DNA of 37,546 bases from Phycisphaerae bacterium (GCA_039961895.1 JABRVU010000355.1:1-37546); one strand, 5' to 3'; shown: positions 16,262 through 36,079, counted from the first letter of the stretch. Notes: generated from the letters alone by a model not told the origin. Numbers and translations are program-made.

Positions 16262-16289
16262 TTGACACACGTGAACCGTCGGCTATACT
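16262..16289 (+). promoter_or_regulatory. Sigma70 promoter upstream of SAM-I riboswitch 1
   Basis: TTGACA-N16-TATACT. Confidence 0.7.
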
Positions 16290-16315
16290 GATGGGACTTG
16301 ACAATCAGGTGCAGG

Positions 16316-16446
16316 CTCTTATCCAGAGTGGCAGAGGGAACGGCCCTTTGACGCCACAGCAACCCGCTTTGGCCCCGCCGCCGGCGGCGCCAGTAGGGTG
16401 CTAACTCCTGCCCATGGCCGGCTTTGGCTAATGGGGAAGATAAGAG
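16316..16446 (+). ncRNA. SAM-I (S-box) riboswitch aptamer
   Basis: P1 CTCTTATC/GATAAGAG; ATCCAGAG; TGGCAGAGGG-AACGG-CCCTTTGACGCCA (P2 with kink-turn); GCAACC...GGTGCTAACTCC; P4 hairpin. Confidence 0.95.
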
Positions 16447-16469
16447 GACAATGGCGCCGGTGCCACTTG

Positions 16470-16508
16470 ACCTCTCTCCCTGCCCAACGGCCGGGAGAGA
16501 GGTTTTTT
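16470..16508 (+). terminator. Intrinsic terminator (expression platform of riboswitch 1)
   Basis: ACCTCTCTCCC...GGGAGAGAGGT followed by a T-run; the 5' arm CCTCT can alternatively pair with AGAGG at the P1 3' strand. Confidence 0.9.
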
Positions 16509-16523
16509 GTTGCACGTCATGTT

Positions 16524-16615
16524 CACAACGGAGGCACGGAGAACCTGGAGAAGCCATGTCCTCGGAGTAGAGAACCAAGGGAACCGGCTCCAGAGTTCTC
16601 TTTGTTTCCGCGGTG
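16524..16615. repeat. Long imperfect inverted repeat in the leader of the ThrC-like gene
   Basis: CACAACGGAGGCACGGAGAACCTGGAG (16524-16550) pairs, with G-U pairs, to CTCCAGAGTTCTCTTTGTTTCCGCGGTG (16588-16615). Confidence 0.65.
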
Positions 16616-16643
16616 CAAGCAGACGGGTTCGAGGAAACAGGTC

Positions 16644-17981
16644 ATGAGTTACGTGGTCGGTCTCAAATGCCGCGAGTGCGGGCAGCAGTATCCCGATTCG
16701 CCGCTGCACGTCTGCGAGGTGTGTTTCGGGCCCCTGGAGGTCGAATACGACTATGCGCGGATGCGCGGGCGGGTGACGCGCGCGTCGATCTCGGCGGGAC
16801 CGGCGTCGCTGTGGCGCTACCGCGACCTGCTGCCGCTGACGGGCGAGCCTTCGACCGGTTTCTGCTCGGGCTTTACGCCGCTGCGGCGGGCCCGCAACCT
16901 CGAACGCCGCTGGGGTTGCAGGGAAATCTACCTCAAGGACGACTCGGTGAACTGCCCGACGCTCTCGTACAAGGAGCGCGTGGTCAGCGTGGCGGTGAGC
17001 AAGGGGATCGAGTTCGGGTTCGAGACCTTCGGCTGCGCCAGTACCGGCAACCTGGCCAACAGCGTGGCCGCCCACTCGGCGTTCGTGGGCCGGCGGGCCT
17101 ACGTGATGATTCCGCACGACCTCGAGCAGGGCAAGGTGCTGGGCTCGCTGATCTACCGGCCGAAGATGGTGCGCATCCGCGGCAACTACGACGACGTGAA
17201 CCGGCTGTGCGCGGAGATCGCGGACAAGTACCGCTGGGCGATCGTGAACGTGAACCTGCGGCCGTACTATACCGAAGGGGCCAAGACCTACGGGTTCGAG
17301 GTGGCCGAGCAGTTGGGCTGGAAGCTGCCCCGGCACATGGTGCTGCCGACCGCCGGGGGCACCATCCTGCCCAAGGTGTGGAAGGCCTTCCGCGAGCTGG
17401 TGGACCTGGGCCTGGTCGAGGACGCGCCGTGCCGGATCTACTCGGCCCAGGCCGGCGGGTGCGACCCGGTGGTCCGGGCGGTGCACGAGGGGACGGACAT
17501 CATCAAGCCGCAGAAACCGCGGACCATCGCCAAGTCCATCGCCATCGGTAATCCGGCCGACGGCTATTACGTGATCCAGGCGGTCAAGGAATCCGGCGGC
17601 TGGGCCGAGAGCGTCAGCGACGACGAGATCATCGAGGCCATCAAGCTGCTGGCCGAGTGCGAGGGCGTCTGGACCGAGCCGGCCGGCGGGACCACCGTCG
17701 CGGTCACGAAAAAGCTGCTCGACCAGGGCCGGATTCCGCCGGACGAGTCCATCGTCGTCAGCATCACCGGCAACGGCCTCAAAACGCAGGAAGTGGTGCT
17801 CGACAGGCTGGAGGAGCCGGCGCTGATCAACGCGCGGCTGGCGGAATTCGACGAGGTAGTGGCCTCGACGGCGGGCACGGTTTCGGCCGCTGGTGCCGCC
17901 AGGGGGGCGCACGACCAACGTGCCGATCAACGCGCCGCGGGCTTGAGCCCCCGCGGCGCCCGTGCGGAGCGCGCCTCCTGA
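16644..17981 (+). CDS. Threonine-synthase-like fold-type II PLP enzyme; probable sulfur-carrier-dependent homocysteine synthase
   Basis: N-terminal CxxC..CxxC, SLWRYR, PTLSYKER (PLP Lys), CASTGNLANS, EGAKT, SIAIGNPADG, EPAGG, ITGNGLKT; RBS GAGGA. The specific function is inferred from the riboswitch and neighbours. Confidence 0.88.
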   Translation: MSYVVGLKCRECGQQYPDSPLHVCEVCFGPLEVEYDYARMRGRVTRASISAGPASLWRYRDLLPLTGEPSTGFCSGFTPLRRARNLERRWGCREIYLKDDSVNCPTLSYKERVVSVAVSKGIEFGFETFGCASTGNLANSVAAHSAFVGRRAYVMIPHDLEQGKVLGSLIYRPKMVRIRGNYDDVNRLCAEIADKYRWAIVNVNLRPYYTEGAKTYGFEVAEQLGWKLPRHMVLPTAGGTILPKVWKAFRELVDLGLVEDAPCRIYSAQAGGCDPVVRAVHEGTDIIKPQKPRTIAKSIAIGNPADGYYVIQAVKESGGWAESVSDDEIIEAIKLLAECEGVWTEPAGGTTVAVTKKLLDQGRIPPDESIVVSITGNGLKTQEVVLDRLEEPALINARLAEFDEVVASTAGTVSAAGAARGAHDQRADQRAAGLSPRGARAERAS

Positions 17982-18097
17982 AACCCCGAAAACACACCGG
18001 AGGGACGCCGGCACCGCACGAGCCGGTGGCGAGGGGAGTTTGCGACGGTAAGATGGGTCGATCGGCGGGCCCGGAAACTGATGAGGAGCAGGCGATC

Positions 18098-18367
18098 ATG
18101 CAGGTGCGGATACCGGCCACGTTGAGGAAGTTCACCGAGGGGGCCGACACCCTTCCGGCCGCCGGCGCCACCGTGGGCGAGGTGCTGGCCGGCTTATGCG
18201 AGCGCTACCCCGATTTCCGGCCGCGGCTGTTCAAGCCGGACGGGTCGCTCAACCGGTTCGTCAACGTGTTCGTGAACGAGGAGGACATCCGCTTCACGGG
18301 CGACTTGCAGACACCGGTCAAAGAGAACGATGAGATCAGCATCATCCAGGCGGTAGCCGGGGGGTAG
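18098..18367 (+). CDS. MoaD/ThiS/CysO-family ubiquitin-like sulfur carrier protein (89 aa)
   Basis: MQVRIPATLR...TVGEVL...FVNVFVNEEDIRF...DEISIIQAVAGG*; C-terminal Gly-Gly; GAGGAG RBS. Embedded in ORF-track entry 17657..18367. Confidence 0.93.
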   Translation: MQVRIPATLRKFTEGADTLPAAGATVGEVLAGLCERYPDFRPRLFKPDGSLNRFVNVFVNEEDIRFTGDLQTPVKENDEISIIQAVAGG

Positions 18368-18447
18368 CAGCGTGTGGCATCGTCCGCCAATCGGCGAACG
18401 AAGCCGGCTGACAACCGGTGCCCCGTCAGAGAAGCCACGGGTGAACC

Positions 18448-18984
18448 ATGGCGGTGATCCAGCACGAACTCGAACTGACCTTTCCGGCCGCCAAGGTGGT
18501 CCGGCCGGTGCTCTGCGAGATGTTCCGGAGGCACGAGGTGGTCTTCAACGTGGCCCGGGCCAACGTGACCCGGCAGCGCGGGCACTTTCACTTCACCCTG
18601 CTGGGAGAAGAGGGGGTGGTGAAGGCGGCCGAGGAATACCTGCGCACGGCCGGGATCGAGGTCCACGTGTTGCGCAGCGGGCCGTTCGAGGGCAAGCTGC
18701 CGGCCCGGCCGGATCGGCTGGGCTCGAACCCCAGCGAGCCGCGGGCCGCGCGGAAGCTGTGGCTGACTTATTCCGAGGCCCTTCGCGACCGGCCCATCGT
18801 CTGGGAGATGGCCTGCCGGTTCGACGTGACCTTCGACATCCGCCAGTCCAGCGTGGGCAAGGACGTGAACATCATGGCCGTCCTGCTCGAGGGCCCGGCC
18901 AGTCACGTCGAAGGGGCGATGGAGTTCCTTCGCCGGATCGGCATCGAAGTCGAGCCGATCGAGAAGAGCGTGATCGAGGGGTGA
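18448..18984 (+). CDS. Stand-alone tandem NIL-domain protein
   Basis: Two internal repeats: LTF...RPVLCEM...EVVFNVARANV...LLG......AEEYLR..GIEV and LTY...RPIVWEM...DVTFDIRQSSV...LEG....EGAMEFLR..GIEVEP. Confidence 0.78.
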   Translation: MAVIQHELELTFPAAKVVRPVLCEMFRRHEVVFNVARANVTRQRGHFHFTLLGEEGVVKAAEEYLRTAGIEVHVLRSGPFEGKLPARPDRLGSNPSEPRAARKLWLTYSEALRDRPIVWEMACRFDVTFDIRQSSVGKDVNIMAVLLEGPASHVEGAMEFLRRIGIEVEPIEKSVIEG

Positions 18985-19121
18985 GGTACGGTGCGAGCGT
19001 GGCAACGTGAAAAGGTGGAAGGGTAAAGAGCCGCGTGCTTCGAGCCCGCGCGGTTCCTTCCCAGTCGCCGGATGACCCGGAGCGCGCGACGGTTGCCAGC
19101 CCCGCGGGCAGCGAGTGACCG

Positions 19122-19865
19122 ATGTCGGCCGATGCGTTGGATCGTTCCAGATGCTCTCTTCGGCAGGAAATGGCTTCGACGGCTTTTTCCTCGGCCGTCG
19201 GGGCCGCGTTGATGCTCTACGCCGGTTTCGGCATGAACCTGCGCGGGGTGAGCGGCGCGGGGCTCTATGATGGATCGGTGGCGGCGTTCACCTGGACGAT
19301 GAAAATCGGCGGCCTCGCGATGGCCGCGTCGGCGGTGCTGTTGTATGCGGGGTGGAGGCCGGTCCTGCCCGCCGATGCCGTCCTCACGGCGGTCATTGGA
19401 GCGATCCTCGCGGGCACCGGCATGATCTGGATGGTCAACCAGGACGTGCAGGGCGTTCTCAACCTGGTGTTCGCGTTGTTGTTCCTGGGGGCGGCCAGGC
19501 GGAGTTGGATGGTGTTCAGGGCTTCATCGCGGGGAACCCCGCCGCCGGCCGGATCGTGGCGGGAAGAGGAGCCGATCGGGCGGGAACAGAACCCGCCGCG
19601 GCCGAGCGTCGCGGACCGCCAGGCGGCGATGGATCGACTTCTGGCGGCCAAGCGCCGGCAACCGCCGTCGGAGCCGCCGCCGACCGAGCCGGCGGGGGCG
19701 GTGACGAAGCCCGCCGAACCGGTCGTTGTGCAACAGCAGGAAGCCGTTCGGCCGAGCCCCGGGCCGGCCGCCTCGGCGCCGGCGGACCCGGCGCCGCCGA
19801 CAGCGGCCCTGACGGACGAACCCGCGCCGGAGGGTTTCCTGGCGCAGTTGGGCCGTGATGAATAA
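19122..19865 (+). CDS. Hypothetical membrane protein (about 4 TM helices plus a Pro/Ala-rich tail)
   Basis: Hydrophobic segments in the N-terminal half; low-complexity tail ending PEGFLAQLGRDE. Confidence 0.65.
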   Translation: MSADALDRSRCSLRQEMASTAFSSAVGAALMLYAGFGMNLRGVSGAGLYDGSVAAFTWTMKIGGLAMAASAVLLYAGWRPVLPADAVLTAVIGAILAGTGMIWMVNQDVQGVLNLVFALLFLGAARRSWMVFRASSRGTPPPAGSWREEEPIGREQNPPRPSVADRQAAMDRLLAAKRRQPPSEPPPTEPAGAVTKPAEPVVVQQQEAVRPSPGPAASAPADPAPPTAALTDEPAPEGFLAQLGRDE

Positions 19866-19887
19866 CGGAAGGAAGTCATCGAACGAC

Positions 19888-20961
19888 ATGGCCATCAGTC
19901 AGGCGGCACAGAAAATCGAACAGGACCCCGAGCTGGCCCGTTATTCGCGCCAGATGCTCTTCGAACCGGTCGGCGAGGAAGGGCAGCGCCGGCTCATGGA
20001 ATCCCGCGTCACGCTGATCGGGTGCGGCGCGTTGGGCACCGTCCTGGCCAACACCCTGGTGCGGGCGGGCGTGGGTTTTCTGCGCGTGGTGGACCGCGAT
20101 TTCATCGAGTCCAACAACCTCCAGCGTCAGGTGCTCTTCGACGAGGACGACATCGCCGGCAACCTGCCCAAGGCCGAGGCCGCCCGCCGGAAGCTGGGGC
20201 GCATCAACTCCAAGGTCGCGGTCGAGGCGGTCGTGACCGACGTGAATCACCGCAACATCGAGCAGTTGGGCGAAGGGGCCGACCTGCTGCTGGACGGCAC
20301 GGACAACTTCGAGACGCGCTTCCTCATCAACGACCTGGCGGTGAAGACGCGACGGCCGTGGGTGTATGGCGCCTGCATCGGGGCCACCGGCCTGGCCATG
20401 CCCATCCTGCCGAACGATACGCCGTGCCTTCGCTGCGTCTTCGAGAGCGCTCCTCCGCCGGAGATGAACCCGACCTGCGACACGGCCGGGGTGCTCGGGC
20501 CGGTGGTCAACATCGTGGCCAGCTTCCAGGCCCTGGAGGCCATGAAAATCCTCATGGGCCGGACCGAGGCCGTGGTTCGCCGGCTGCTCAACTTCGACGC
20601 CTGGGACGGGCGCTATTCGCTGCTCAACGTGCAGAAGGCCTATGACCAGGGCGACTGTCCGTGCTGCAAGCAGAAGCGGTTCGAATACCTGGAGGGCCGC
20701 TTCGGCAGCAGCGCGACGACTTTGTGCGGCCGGAACGCGGTGCAGATCACCCCGCCGGGCGGTCTGAAGGTGGATTTCAGGACCATCGCCGAAAAGATGA
20801 AGGCCGCCGCCGGCGCCGAGCCGCGCTTCAACGCCTTCATGCTCAAGGCCGACGTGGCCCCCTACGAGATCACCGTCTTCGCCGACGGGCGGGCCATCAT
20901 CAAGGGCACCAACAAACCCGACGAGGCGAAATCCGTCTACGCCAGGTACATCGGGGCGTGA
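19888..20961 (+). CDS. MoeB/ThiF-family (E1-like) adenylyltransferase
   Basis: RYSRQ, IGCGALG, DRDFIESNNLQRQ, DGTDNFETR, CLRC, CDTAGVL, CPCC, C-terminal LCGRNAVQI...ARYIG; no rhodanese domain. Confidence 0.92.
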   Translation: MAISQAAQKIEQDPELARYSRQMLFEPVGEEGQRRLMESRVTLIGCGALGTVLANTLVRAGVGFLRVVDRDFIESNNLQRQVLFDEDDIAGNLPKAEAARRKLGRINSKVAVEAVVTDVNHRNIEQLGEGADLLLDGTDNFETRFLINDLAVKTRRPWVYGACIGATGLAMPILPNDTPCLRCVFESAPPPEMNPTCDTAGVLGPVVNIVASFQALEAMKILMGRTEAVVRRLLNFDAWDGRYSLLNVQKAYDQGDCPCCKQKRFEYLEGRFGSSATTLCGRNAVQITPPGGLKVDFRTIAEKMKAAAGAEPRFNAFMLKADVAPYEITVFADGRAIIKGTNKPDEAKSVYARYIGA

Positions 20962-20969
20962 TCATCGAC

Positions 20970-22121
20970 ATGCGCGAAATCATCTACCTGGACAACGGCG
21001 CGACCAGTTGGCCCAAGCCGCCTGGCGTTCAGCGCGAAATGGCCCGGTTTCTGGCGGAAGACGCGGGCAATCCCGGCCGGTCCGGGCATCGCATGGCCCT
21101 GGCCGCCGAGAAGATGCTCGACGACGTGCGCGGCAAGCTGGCCCGGCTGTTCGACGCCGCCGATCCCAGGCGCATCATCTTCACCCTCAATTGCACGGAC
21201 GCGCTCAACATGGCCATCAAGGGCGTGCTGGGCGAGGGCGATCACGTCATCACCTCGATGCTCGAGCACAACAGCGTCTCCCGGCCGCTCCAGGCCCTGG
21301 CCGACGCCGGGCGCATCGCGCTGACGCGCCTGCCGATGGCCGAGGGCGGCTTCATCGACCCTGCGGCCGTCCGTCGGGCGGTCACGCCCAAGACCCGGCT
21401 GATCGCGGTCACGCATTGCAGCAATGTGCTGGGCACCATCCAACCGGCCGAAGAGATCGGGCGCATCGCCCGAGAGCACGATCTGCTGTTCCTGCTGGAC
21501 GCGGCCCAGTCGGCCGGTCTGATCCCCATCTCCGTCCGCCGCATGAACATCGACCTGCTGGCGTTTCCCGGCCACAAGGCCCTGCTGGGCCCGGCGGGCA
21601 CCGGGGGGCTCTACGTCGGCGAGCGGGCCGACCCGGCCCCCTGGCGCGAGGGCGGCAGCGGGGGAGACTCCAAGTCGCCCGTCCAGGCCCTGCTCGAGTT
21701 CCCTTATCGCCTGGAGGGCGGAACGCCCAACACCGTCGGGCTGGCCGGCCTGGGGGCGGCGCTCGATTTTCTGCTGGAGCGCGATCCGCACGAATCGCTG
21801 GAACACGAGCGCAGGCTGGCCCGGCTGCTGGTTGAGGCCCTGGCCGATGACGACCGGATTGCGTTGCTGGGCACGCCCGACTATTCCCGCCGCGCCGGCG
21901 TGGTCGCGTTGACGGCCGGAGGCATGCCCACCCAGGAGCTGGCCTCCGTGCTCGACGTGAACTTCAACATCGCGGTTCGGCCGGGGCTGCACTGCGCCCC
22001 CTACATCCACAAGGAGCTGGGCACCTTCCCCGACGGGGCCCTGCGCGTTACTCCGGGGCCGTTCAGCACCGAGGAGGACGTCCGTCGGCTCGCCGAAGCC
22101 CTGCCCCAGATCGTCCTGTAA
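20970..22121 (+). CDS. Cysteine desulfurase family protein (class V aminotransferase)
   Basis: IYLDNGATSWPKP, EHNSV, DAAQSAG, GHKALLGP (PLP Lys), EGGTPN, VRPGLHCAP (catalytic Cys). Alternative GTG at 20958 overlaps the MoeB/ThiF stop. Confidence 0.92.
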   Translation: MREIIYLDNGATSWPKPPGVQREMARFLAEDAGNPGRSGHRMALAAEKMLDDVRGKLARLFDAADPRRIIFTLNCTDALNMAIKGVLGEGDHVITSMLEHNSVSRPLQALADAGRIALTRLPMAEGGFIDPAAVRRAVTPKTRLIAVTHCSNVLGTIQPAEEIGRIAREHDLLFLLDAAQSAGLIPISVRRMNIDLLAFPGHKALLGPAGTGGLYVGERADPAPWREGGSGGDSKSPVQALLEFPYRLEGGTPNTVGLAGLGAALDFLLERDPHESLEHERRLARLLVEALADDDRIALLGTPDYSRRAGVVALTAGGMPTQELASVLDVNFNIAVRPGLHCAPYIHKELGTFPDGALRVTPGPFSTEEDVRRLAEALPQIVL

Positions 22122-35457: not shown

Positions 35458-35739
35458 CTACCGCCCTGACGACAGCGGGACGCCCGTGGGCTCGTGCCAG
35501 CGCCGCCCGTGGGTCTCGTGGTGTCGCCGGATCAGTTGCCGGACGTAGGCATCGAGCTGCTGCGCGGTGAGCCGGCGCAGCTCCGATTCGCCGAGCGGTC
35601 CGTCGGCCAGCAGTTTCGTGAGCGCCCGGCGGGCCTGGTCCGGGTCGGGGTACATCGCCCGCAGCCGGGGTTGATCGAGGTAATAGTCAGGCAATGTTTC
35701 CATCCGCCCGCCGCGCAGCACCCAGTTGAACCACTGCAT
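35458..35739 (-). CDS. 93-aa hypothetical protein downstream of SAM-I riboswitch 2
   Basis: GGAGAGG-TGAC-ATG RBS; mostly G/C third codon positions; no motif recognised. Confidence 0.65.
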   Translation of the reverse strand: MQWFNWVLRGGRMETLPDYYLDQPRLRAMYPDPDQARRALTKLLADGPLGESELRRLTAQQLDAYVRQLIRRHHETHGRRWHEPTGVPLSSGR

Positions 35740-35918: not shown

Positions 35919-36025
35919 GAGCCGCATCGTTCCCGCCGTCGGGACGGCTTTGGCACCTTGGCAGACGCCGCCAGGTTGCCGGGCGCTTCAAACGGGCCAG
36001 GACCCTAACGCCACTCGTGATGCTC
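35919..36025 (-). ncRNA. SAM-I riboswitch aptamer, variant
   Basis: Minus strand GAGCATCACGAGTGGCGTTAGGGTCCTGGCCCGTTTGAAGCGCCCGGCAACCTGGCGGCGTCTGCCAAGGTGCCAAAGCCGTCCCGACGGCGGGAACGATGCGGCTC: P1 GCATC/GATGC, P2 GGG-loop-CCC, P3 GCAACC/GGTGC, P4 TCCCG/CGGGA. Confidence 0.85.
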
Positions 36026-36079
36026 GCCATGTCATCGACCGCCGGCCCGTCCACGGACCGACCGGCGTCGATGCCCATC

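Follow-up and report, generated by a model that had tools for sequence, protein, structure and literature searches.

The stretch of DNA analysed here (the window) comprises 37,546 nucleotides of a Phycisphaerae bacterium (GCA_039961895.1, JABRVU010000355.1:1-37546). Between positions 16262 and 22121, all on the plus strand, it carries an S-adenosylmethionine (SAM)-I riboswitch leader followed by six co-oriented genes, encoding a ThrC-family pyridoxal 5'-phosphate (PLP) enzyme, a sulfur-carrier protein, a NIL-domain protein, a hydrophobic protein, an E1 adenylyltransferase and a cysteine desulfurase. A reading made from the sequence alone had described a promoter, a SAM-I aptamer, a terminator and these six genes, and had interpreted them as a probable thiocarboxylate-dependent route to homocysteine and methionine. 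All of the elements were found at, or a few bases from, the positions given in this sequence-only reading.

The operon opens with a sigma-70-like promoter (16262-16289; TTGACA, 16 nt, TATACT; 11 of 12 matches), the single promoter-like site between 15900 and 22400, a region for which shuffled sequences gave a mean of 0.5. The SAM-I aptamer (RF00162; 16316-16446) matches the full Rfam covariance model (1-108) with an E value of 4.7e-17 and 78.7 bits, the gathering score being 44.4, and it leads into an expression platform (16433-16512) with two alternative folds. In the first fold, an intrinsic terminator hairpin (16469-16504) of 15 pairs, G+C-rich and followed by a U-run, lies in a fragment with a folding energy of -38.5 kcal/mol (z -2.9); owing to a bulge, this hairpin is missed by a simple terminator scan. 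In the second, obtained once the 3' arm of the hairpin is left out, an antiterminator (16433-16481) pairs 16433-16447 with 16471-16481 at -20.6 kcal/mol, which takes up the 3' strand of aptamer helix P1. Judged by its predicted folding energies, the leader is a classical transcriptional OFF switch.

The first gene (16644-17981) encodes a ThrC-family PLP enzyme of 445 aa (PALP, 211.7 bits; TIGR00260, 261.2 bits) that bears an N-terminal CxxC...CxxC ribbon. It is followed by the genes for a ThiS/MoaD-type sulfur-carrier protein (18098-18367; ThiS, 63 bits; SAMP1, 60.7 bits) with the C-terminus AVAGG and for a tandem NIL (ACT-like) protein (18448-18984; NIL, 74.7 bits over two stretches). A gap of 137 nt, which the sequence-only reading had pointed out and which is real, separates the end of the NIL gene at 18984 from the start of a gene for a hydrophobic protein without a family match (19122-19865). 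The last two genes encode a rhodanese-less E1 adenylyltransferase of the ThiF/MoeB type (19888-20961; ThiF, 248.5 bits) and, starting 8 nt past the E1 stop, a cysteine desulfurase of the class-V aminotransferase fold (20970-22121; Aminotran_5, 282.8 bits; TIGR01977, 398 bits against a cut-off of 377), whose translation shows the HK (PLP lysine) and LHCAP (catalytic Cys) motifs. Among assembled contigs of sequencing runs, the RNA-library run X10 (a small share) yielded short contigs almost identical to parts of the enzyme, membrane, E1 and desulfurase genes. One of these contigs spans the E1-desulfurase junction (20910-21182). They may stem from DNA carry-over, and none of the assembled contigs covered the leader or the 137-nt gap.

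We consider it likely that this operon serves a SAM-repressed synthesis of homocysteine from O-phosphohomoserine with a sulfur-carrier protein, of the type known as MetM/MetO. The MetM/MetO O-phosphohomoserine thiocarboxylate pathway of Streptomyces albulus was published by Hasebe et al. in 2024 (Appl Environ Microbiol). Genome context, phyletic pattern and phylogeny lend our functional reading strong support, as set out below.

The ThrC-family enzyme and the methionine pathway

The window derives from a 5.0-Mb assembly in 666 contigs that is 91.75% complete (G000). We compared it with 41 relatives, including members of its own family (f1), and with five Phycisphaerae genomes (G041-G045), among them two with megabase-scale chromosome-labelled records as well as the cultured Fontivita pretiosa (G044).

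Automated pipelines would label the first gene thrC, as the sequence-only reading had anticipated. Its product passes the thrC equivalog model TIGR00260, for which the cut-off is 167.1 bits, the solved structures closest to it are all threonine synthases, and the source names of its relatives (those of at least 68% identity listed) are likewise threonine synthase; with PRK08197 it scores 295.8 bits, under the cut-off of 303. The separate canonical thrC that the sequence-only reading had proposed to look for is found in G000 on contig C169 (232 bits), and its product shares 26% identity with the window enzyme. This C169-type ThrC recurs in most listed genomes among the 41 relatives searched, whereas G000, G005, G012 and G020 gave the window type, with a further fragment of it, located at a contig end, in G016. 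The C169-type copy thus recurs over the family, and the window copy is patchy and lies behind a SAM riboswitch. F. pretiosa, a relative of the donor-like lineage, has both types.

In a tree of 63 rows, the window enzyme, nine context-linked planctomycete and actinomycete enzymes and 23 representatives form one clade with 99% support in the Shimodaira-Hasegawa-like approximate likelihood ratio test (SH-aLRT), with the C169-type ThrCs (outgroup) and a third paralogue class outside it. Judged by these sequence relationships, the window enzyme is an extra ThrC paralogue and not the threonine synthase of the cell. Members of the third class (G001, G004, G006, G009, G017, G019, G020, G025, G035, G038 and G040; e.g. 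L096-L102) are 31-35% identical to the window enzyme, and most carry the N-terminal Cys ribbon. Their fetched flanks gave no match to the carrier, NIL or E1, and we treat the class as unrelated to the module.

SAM-I riboswitches were found in six genomes of the 41 relatives searched. Within f1, they lie directly upstream of the window-type enzyme gene in G000, G005, G012, G016 (a partial copy at a contig end) and G020, with one exception, a weak second match in G000; in the sixth genome, G039, the riboswitch precedes a gene for a Cys/Met PLP enzyme. Further afield, all eight Phycisphaerae/Tepidisphaeraceae loci tested carry the aptamer upstream of this gene, and the enzyme-linked copy is the sole SAM-I riboswitch of the genome in all five Phycisphaerae genomes. 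Control of threonine supply by a SAM riboswitch is not known.

The weak second match of G000 lies within the window itself, on the minus strand and 19.5 kb from the first (35923-36026; 46.6 bits against the threshold of 44.4), and has mismatches in P1. A small open reading frame (35458-35739, minus strand; 81-93 aa) is located 184 nt downstream of it, belongs to no Pfam family and is present in G000 alone among the 41 relatives searched. The match could represent a riboswitch copy that is decaying or has been recruited.

The substrate of the proposed reaction appears to be available. HomK (TIGR02535), an alternative homoserine phosphotransferase, is encoded at G000:C446:3437-4618 (517.8 bits against a cut-off of 446.3) and exceeds the cut-off in all seven genomes tested. 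The classical homoserine kinase models TIGR00191 and TIGR00938 retrieved only IspE, HddA and weak matches; homoserine phosphorylation in this lineage appears from these profile matches to proceed via HomK, which fills the gap, rather than via ThrB. MetH is present in G000, split over contigs, and in two Phycisphaerae genomes tested.

The enzymes that usually lead to homocysteine are distributed differently. Profile searches of G000 found no MetX, MetA, MetY or DUF39; DUF39 (PF01837) was found in none of seven genomes. Most f1 relatives have adjacent genes for MetX and MetY, and in G000, G005 and G016 the module is present and MetX and MetY were both not found. In G020, MetX is encoded alongside the module in two pieces in different frames (G020:C129:1573-2780), and this metX may be decaying. 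In the Phycisphaerae genomes, MetX was found in none of the five, MetA was not found in G041 and G044, the two tested, and four of the five, F. pretiosa included, gave no Cys_Met_Meta_PP enzyme at E<=1e-30. Since MetX, MetA and Cys_Met_Meta_PP enzymes were not found, the module enzyme is the sole visible homocysteine route in such Phycisphaerae.

The absence of metA, metX, metY and metB, which the sequence-only reading had named as a check, holds for G000 in part: MetA, MetX and MetY were not found, and there is one Cys_Met_Meta_PP enzyme (C579), a PRK07811-type cystathionine gamma-synthase/gamma-lyase (CGS/CGL; 521 bits against a cut-off of 513). Homocysteine could thus originate, as in plants, from C579 acting on O-phosphohomoserine provided by HomK together with cysteine, in which case the operon would make another sulfur compound. 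However, the C579 gene adjoins a gene for a cystathionine beta-synthase with CBS domains. Such neighbours are the usual reverse-transsulfuration pair, and we read them as such here. No cystathionine beta-lyase candidate was found among the other, weak Cys_Met_Meta_PP matches of G000, and four Phycisphaerae genomes possess the module without this enzyme family. We regard an origin of homocysteine from C579 as extremely unlikely.

Conservation of the module and roles of its accessory proteins

To describe the surroundings of the enzyme gene we used a set of 80 related loci, 67 of which include at least 3 kb downstream of it. In 54 of these 67 loci the carrier gene follows downstream (<=400 nt away in 35), and 50 of the 54 carrier-bearing loci also contain the NIL gene (<=400 nt from the carrier in 38). 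E1 is present in 20 of the 67 and the desulfurase in 13, always with E1. A survey of 301 sampled Planctomycetota genomes gave an enzyme homologue (E<=1e-100) in 42, and in a sample of 14 divergent loci from different planctomycete families we counted a carrier in ten, NIL in six, SAM-I in seven and the full order enzyme-carrier-NIL-E1-desulfurase in five. The sequence-only reading had held that the system would shrink to its first three genes if the E1 and desulfurase genes were not co-transcribed or co-conserved. They are kept with the core, in identical order, in the f1 genomes G000, G005, G012 and G020, and in the five divergent loci just mentioned.

The carrier and NIL genes occur once each per genome and are adjacent in five of five genomes, even where they lie megabases from the enzyme gene. 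Among NIL-seeded metagenome loci with enough upstream sequence, the carrier lies upstream of NIL in 57 of 65, a count that is not phylogenetically broad because these loci are all close relatives.

Given the family of the first gene, it could encode a second, SAM-regulated threonine synthase or another enzyme metabolising threonine or O-phosphohomoserine, with the carrier, E1 and desulfurase serving a different sulfur need (a cofactor or tRNA thiolation) and clustered by chance or co-regulation. The TIGR00260 score and the nearest solved structures agree with this, as do 13 of the 67 loci, which have no carrier near the enzyme gene. In addition, an excerpt of PMC12172450 describes a cyanobacterial homologue, 51.6% identical to MetM and with a MetO-like neighbour, which had threonine synthase and deaminase activity in vitro and is not clearly a MetM. 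This explanation is nevertheless opposed by the separate, family-wide ThrC type in G000 and Fontivita, by the position of the only SAM-I riboswitch of each of five genomes before this gene, and by the fact that such riboswitches are not known to act on threonine supply. Four of the five genomes lack another homocysteine-forming candidate and yet have MetH where tested. Moreover, the gene order is kept across families, and the module carrier comes in addition to ThiS- and MoaD-like ones: it is the third ThiS-family gene in G000, G005, G016 and G020 (two ThiS-family matches were found in G001 and G002, which are without the module, and also in G012, which has it). Taking both sides together, we think a threonine-related function of the operon very unlikely.

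A closer alternative accepts homocysteine as the product of the ThrC-like enzyme and lets it use free sulfide or persulfide, so that the carrier system would deliver or buffer sulfide, or would serve CysM-dependent cysteine synthesis as in mycobacteria. There is one Prok-JAB (JAMM) gene in G000 (C582, 88.7 bits), unlinked to the operon, and one per genome tested. The single JAMM gene of F. pretiosa, Mec-like, lies between cysM and a gene for a two-domain rhodanese (G044:C1:3385916-3389275; L110), and because of this position the one MetO-like carrier of that genome may also serve cysteine synthesis, which suggests that a single carrier supplies both cysteine and homocysteine synthesis in Fontivita. 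Only one carrier orthologue was found per Phycisphaerae genome, and cysteine synthesis may thus draw on the same carrier. Where the carrier and NIL genes stand apart from the enzyme gene, no SAM riboswitch precedes them. A shared carrier is, however, compatible with its use by the ThrC-like enzyme. That 35 of 67 loci have the enzyme gene within 400 nt of the carrier gene, and that the two adjoin in the actinomycete Nonomuraea, also speaks against free sulfide as the donor, and the Streptomyces MetM appears in a listing in PMC13759103 as dependent on the MetO thiocarboxylate. We judge this alternative improbable and retain the transfer of sulfur from the carrier to the ThrC-family enzyme as the preferred reading.

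Of 44 orthologous planctomycete carriers, 27 end at the GG motif and 17 have 1-15 residues beyond it. The extra residues would fit the need for a Mec-type protease, in agreement with the maturation described for MetO; the window carrier, although MetO-like, ends at GG and needs no trimming.

In the NIL protein, the second domain is strongly conserved (W..TF, FD.RQ.S and IMAV, with an invariant C-terminus EPIEKSV(V/I)EG), and the first is degenerate and confined to the lineage of the window. No cysteine column is conserved in the NIL alignment, and a role as persulfide relay was rejected for this reason. In the structural model (pLDDT 91.5), the protein has two beta-alpha-beta-beta-alpha-beta domains and a conserved C-terminal tail that is disordered; the best fold matches, tandem ACT regulatory modules from enzymes of amino-acid biosynthesis, reach low TM-scores of ~0.35. 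Sequences in the PDB gave one match, the MetN2 NIL domain (2qsw, E 0.14), and the plasmid collection gave none. The Atlas indicates clusters of stand-alone NIL proteins in Cyanobacteriota and Armatimonadota. A complex prediction of the enzyme (residues 1-410), carrier and NIL protein from 38-row alignments reached a score of 0.19 against a mark of 0.32, with controls not run. NIL is missing from the actinomycete unit (within 6 kb) and from four of the ten divergent carrier-bearing loci, one of the four being on a contig too short to decide; it is therefore accessory and not part of the chemistry.

In sequence or fold, the NIL protein resembles the C-terminal NIL (C2) domain of the methionine importer MetN and ACT-type regulatory subunits (the IlvA regulatory domain, the small subunit of acetohydroxyacid synthase (AHAS) and SerB2); unlike these, the window protein stands alone and has an invariant flexible C-terminal tail, and the similarity in TM is only ~0.35. 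A NIL domain is also tied to a non-canonical homocysteine route in L-aspartate-semialdehyde sulfurtransferase (L-ASST), which combines DUF39 with a NIL/ferredoxin protein in methanogens and Desulfovibrio (PMC5764234, PMC12068725). According to excerpts of the same two sources, NIL domains bind methionine in MetN and in L-ASST's ferredoxin subunit, in the latter of which the domain is thought to regulate activity. The window NIL protein differs from L-ASST in having no ferredoxin domain, DUF39 was not found in the seven genomes, and the chemistry is unrelated. Because of the ACT-type fold matches and the reported binding of methionine by NIL domains, we favour a sensing or regulatory role; by this analogy the most probable role of the NIL protein is that of a regulatory subunit on the carrier branch that senses an amino acid (methionine-type).

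The E1 retains its Zn-site cysteines and the Cys of the ThiF active-site loop. Its C-terminal ~100 residues make up a domain of their own in which one Cys is invariant (LCGRNAVQ), and neither this domain nor the rest of the protein matches rhodanese. A fold search with the model of the domain (pLDDT 80) returned nothing at E<=0.001, and a weak likeness to a TATA-binding protein (TBP) half-domain (E ~0.06, TM 0.47) is a lead only. As a hypothesis, the C-terminal Cys could accept a persulfide in place of a rhodanese.

The hydrophobic protein has a hydrophobic N-terminal half and a Pro/Ala-rich tail. Although the sequence-only reading had counted this membrane gene as part of the system, it was found only in the closest relatives of the window at 35-38% identity (matched in G005 and G020 but not in G012) and not in the modules of other planctomycete families among the 14 divergent loci. 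Owing to this confinement, we regard it as a lineage-specific insert and not as core.

Other genes accompany the module locally. An RNase R gene follows NIL in Tepidisphaeraceae modules and was judged to reflect synteny, not function. A DinB_2-superfamily (thiol-transferase-like) gene lies between E1 and desulfurase in seven Phycisphaerae loci (L024, L026, L031, L045, L050, L055 and L082) and is not in the window. Ten Tepidisphaeraceae-like loci (L018, L019, L027, L038, L051, L059, L070, L074, L075 and L076) have, between enzyme gene and carrier gene, a further gene for a protein of ~300-330 aa; two members tested had no Pfam or NCBIfam match. The genes flanking the operon in the window are ordinary, namely those for TatC, TsaD and RsmE upstream and for an unassigned protein and a sulfatase downstream.

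Proposed pathway and comparison with known systems

At low SAM, the antiterminator would form and the operon would be read; at high SAM, the aptamer would lock P1 and the terminator would halt transcription. The desulfurase would take sulfur from cysteine as a persulfide, the E1 would adenylate the C-terminal Gly-Gly of the carrier, and the sulfur would be handed on, perhaps via the invariant Cys of the E1 C-terminal domain, to yield the carrier thiocarboxylate (carrier-COSH). With O-phosphohomoserine from HomK, the ThrC-family enzyme would activate this substrate on PLP, eliminate the phosphate and add the carrier thiocarboxylate at C-gamma. Release of homocysteine may be direct, or may involve an S-to-N shift and then cleavage by the single JAMM hydrolase of the genome; MetH would methylate the product. 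The NIL protein would act as an accessory, most likely as a methionine-type sensor on the carrier branch.

Use of a carrier thiocarboxylate as sulfur donor has precedents. In Mycobacterium tuberculosis, the CysO/CysM/Mec/MoeZ system is said to transfer sulfur from a carrier thiocarboxylate with a CysM-type enzyme that acts on O-phosphoserine. The HcyS/HcyF/HcyD/MetY system of Wolinella succinogenes, reportedly described by Krishnamoorthy and Begley in 2011 (cited in PMC5764234), uses a MetY-type enzyme and O-acetylhomoserine. The pathway proposed here would share with both the thiocarboxylate donor to a PLP enzyme, activation by an E1 and a JAMM hydrolase. Unlike theirs, the PLP enzyme of the window is of the ThrC family, and no homoserine acyltransferase was found in G000.

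The closest parallel is MetM/MetO. A table in PMC13759103 lists MetM, MetO, Mec and MoeZ as experimentally supported in Streptomyces; GapMind 2026 gives these four as the Streptomyces pathway, describes the maturation of MetO as Mec-dependent and notes that threonine synthase is a frequent misannotation of MetM. The metM gene of S. albulus is said in an excerpt of PMC12172450 to have an upstream SAM riboswitch and to have homologues in cyanobacteria. As far as these sources go, the window and S. albulus have in common a ThrC-family PLP enzyme adjoining a ThiS/MoaD-type carrier and an upstream SAM riboswitch, and the genome of the window shares with the MetM/MetO system a supply of O-phosphohomoserine (by HomK here) and a JAMM (Mec-type) hydrolase gene. 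In contrast to the Streptomyces system, the window operon has a dedicated TIGR01977 desulfurase and a carrier-linked NIL protein.

A similar unit is present in the actinomycete Nonomuraea gerenzanensis (in a record filed among plasmids), where a SAM-I riboswitch (68.7 bits) is followed by the enzyme and then by a GG-ended carrier. The two proteins are 49% and 48% identical to those of the window, respectively, and the enzyme groups with that of the window in the 99%-supported clade; genes for NIL, E1 and desulfurase were not found within 6 kb. Genomic surroundings, phyletic distribution and the tree support the thiocarboxylate homocysteine pathway put forward by the sequence-only reading. Its novelty was overrated, with the core published in 2024 and included in GapMind 2026. 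Nor is the SAM-switched form of the core new, given the same riboswitch-enzyme-carrier unit in Nonomuraea and the riboswitch reported for S. albulus metM.

Several points weigh against the homocysteine reading. Its chemical steps, substrate, sulfur route and the role of NIL are all drawn by analogy, and the putative orthology to S. albulus MetM (A0A059WBP2) rests on the Nonomuraea proxy. Besides the thrC equivalog match, the activities of the cyanobacterial homologue and the 13 carrier-less loci, four of the 14 divergent homologues (49-54% identity) have neither carrier nor riboswitch; not every homologue of the survey need therefore be a MetM, and these four may do something else. G012 and G020 hold the module plus MetX and MetY, which means that the module is not always the sole route. 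The CGS/CGL-type enzyme of G000 could in principle form cystathionine from O-phosphohomoserine, and as that assembly is 91.75% complete in 666 contigs, "not found" in G000 does not equal absence. Finally, the window E1 is unlike MoeZ in that it has no rhodanese and instead an invariant-Cys C-terminal domain with a weakly TBP-like fold. On balance, we still regard SAM-repressed synthesis of homocysteine by a MetM/MetO-type system as likely.

Origin and implications for planctomycetes

The window enzyme is 70-74% identical to enzymes of Tepidisphaeraceae/Phycisphaerae and 61-65% identical to its counterparts in two "same class" genomes. Within f1, the module is patchy and brings the only strong SAM-I riboswitches of the family. 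The simplest account, which we infer, is that the whole unit was acquired laterally and that some lineages later lost MetX and MetY.

Already known from elsewhere is the MetM/MetO core (2024), reportedly with its SAM riboswitch. For the desulfurase-E1 loading pair, the Cys domain of the E1 and the carrier-linked NIL protein, our full-text literature searches found no description. From these parts a wider model can be sketched, which we offer as tentative. Planctomycetes would run a self-contained version of MetM/MetO, in which the NIL protein acts as a methionine-sensing brake or adaptor on the charging or use of the carrier and the Cys-domain E1 is fed by the TIGR01977 desulfurase, and the whole unit would have moved between classes together with its riboswitch, displacing MetX/MetY.

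For genome annotation, the thrC label has the consequence that automated reconstructions would call such planctomycetes, including F. pretiosa, methionine auxotrophs or would leave a gap in the pathway. The reach of the pathway published in 2024 would extend to several planctomycete genomes in which no other homocysteine route was found. Displacement appears to be in progress, with some module genomes without MetX/MetY and others that still have both. The NIL protein and the Cys domain of the E1 could reveal how thiocarboxylate pathways are regulated and how their carriers are loaded without a rhodanese; if the proposed NIL brake is true, it would add feedback at the protein level to the SAM switch at the RNA level.

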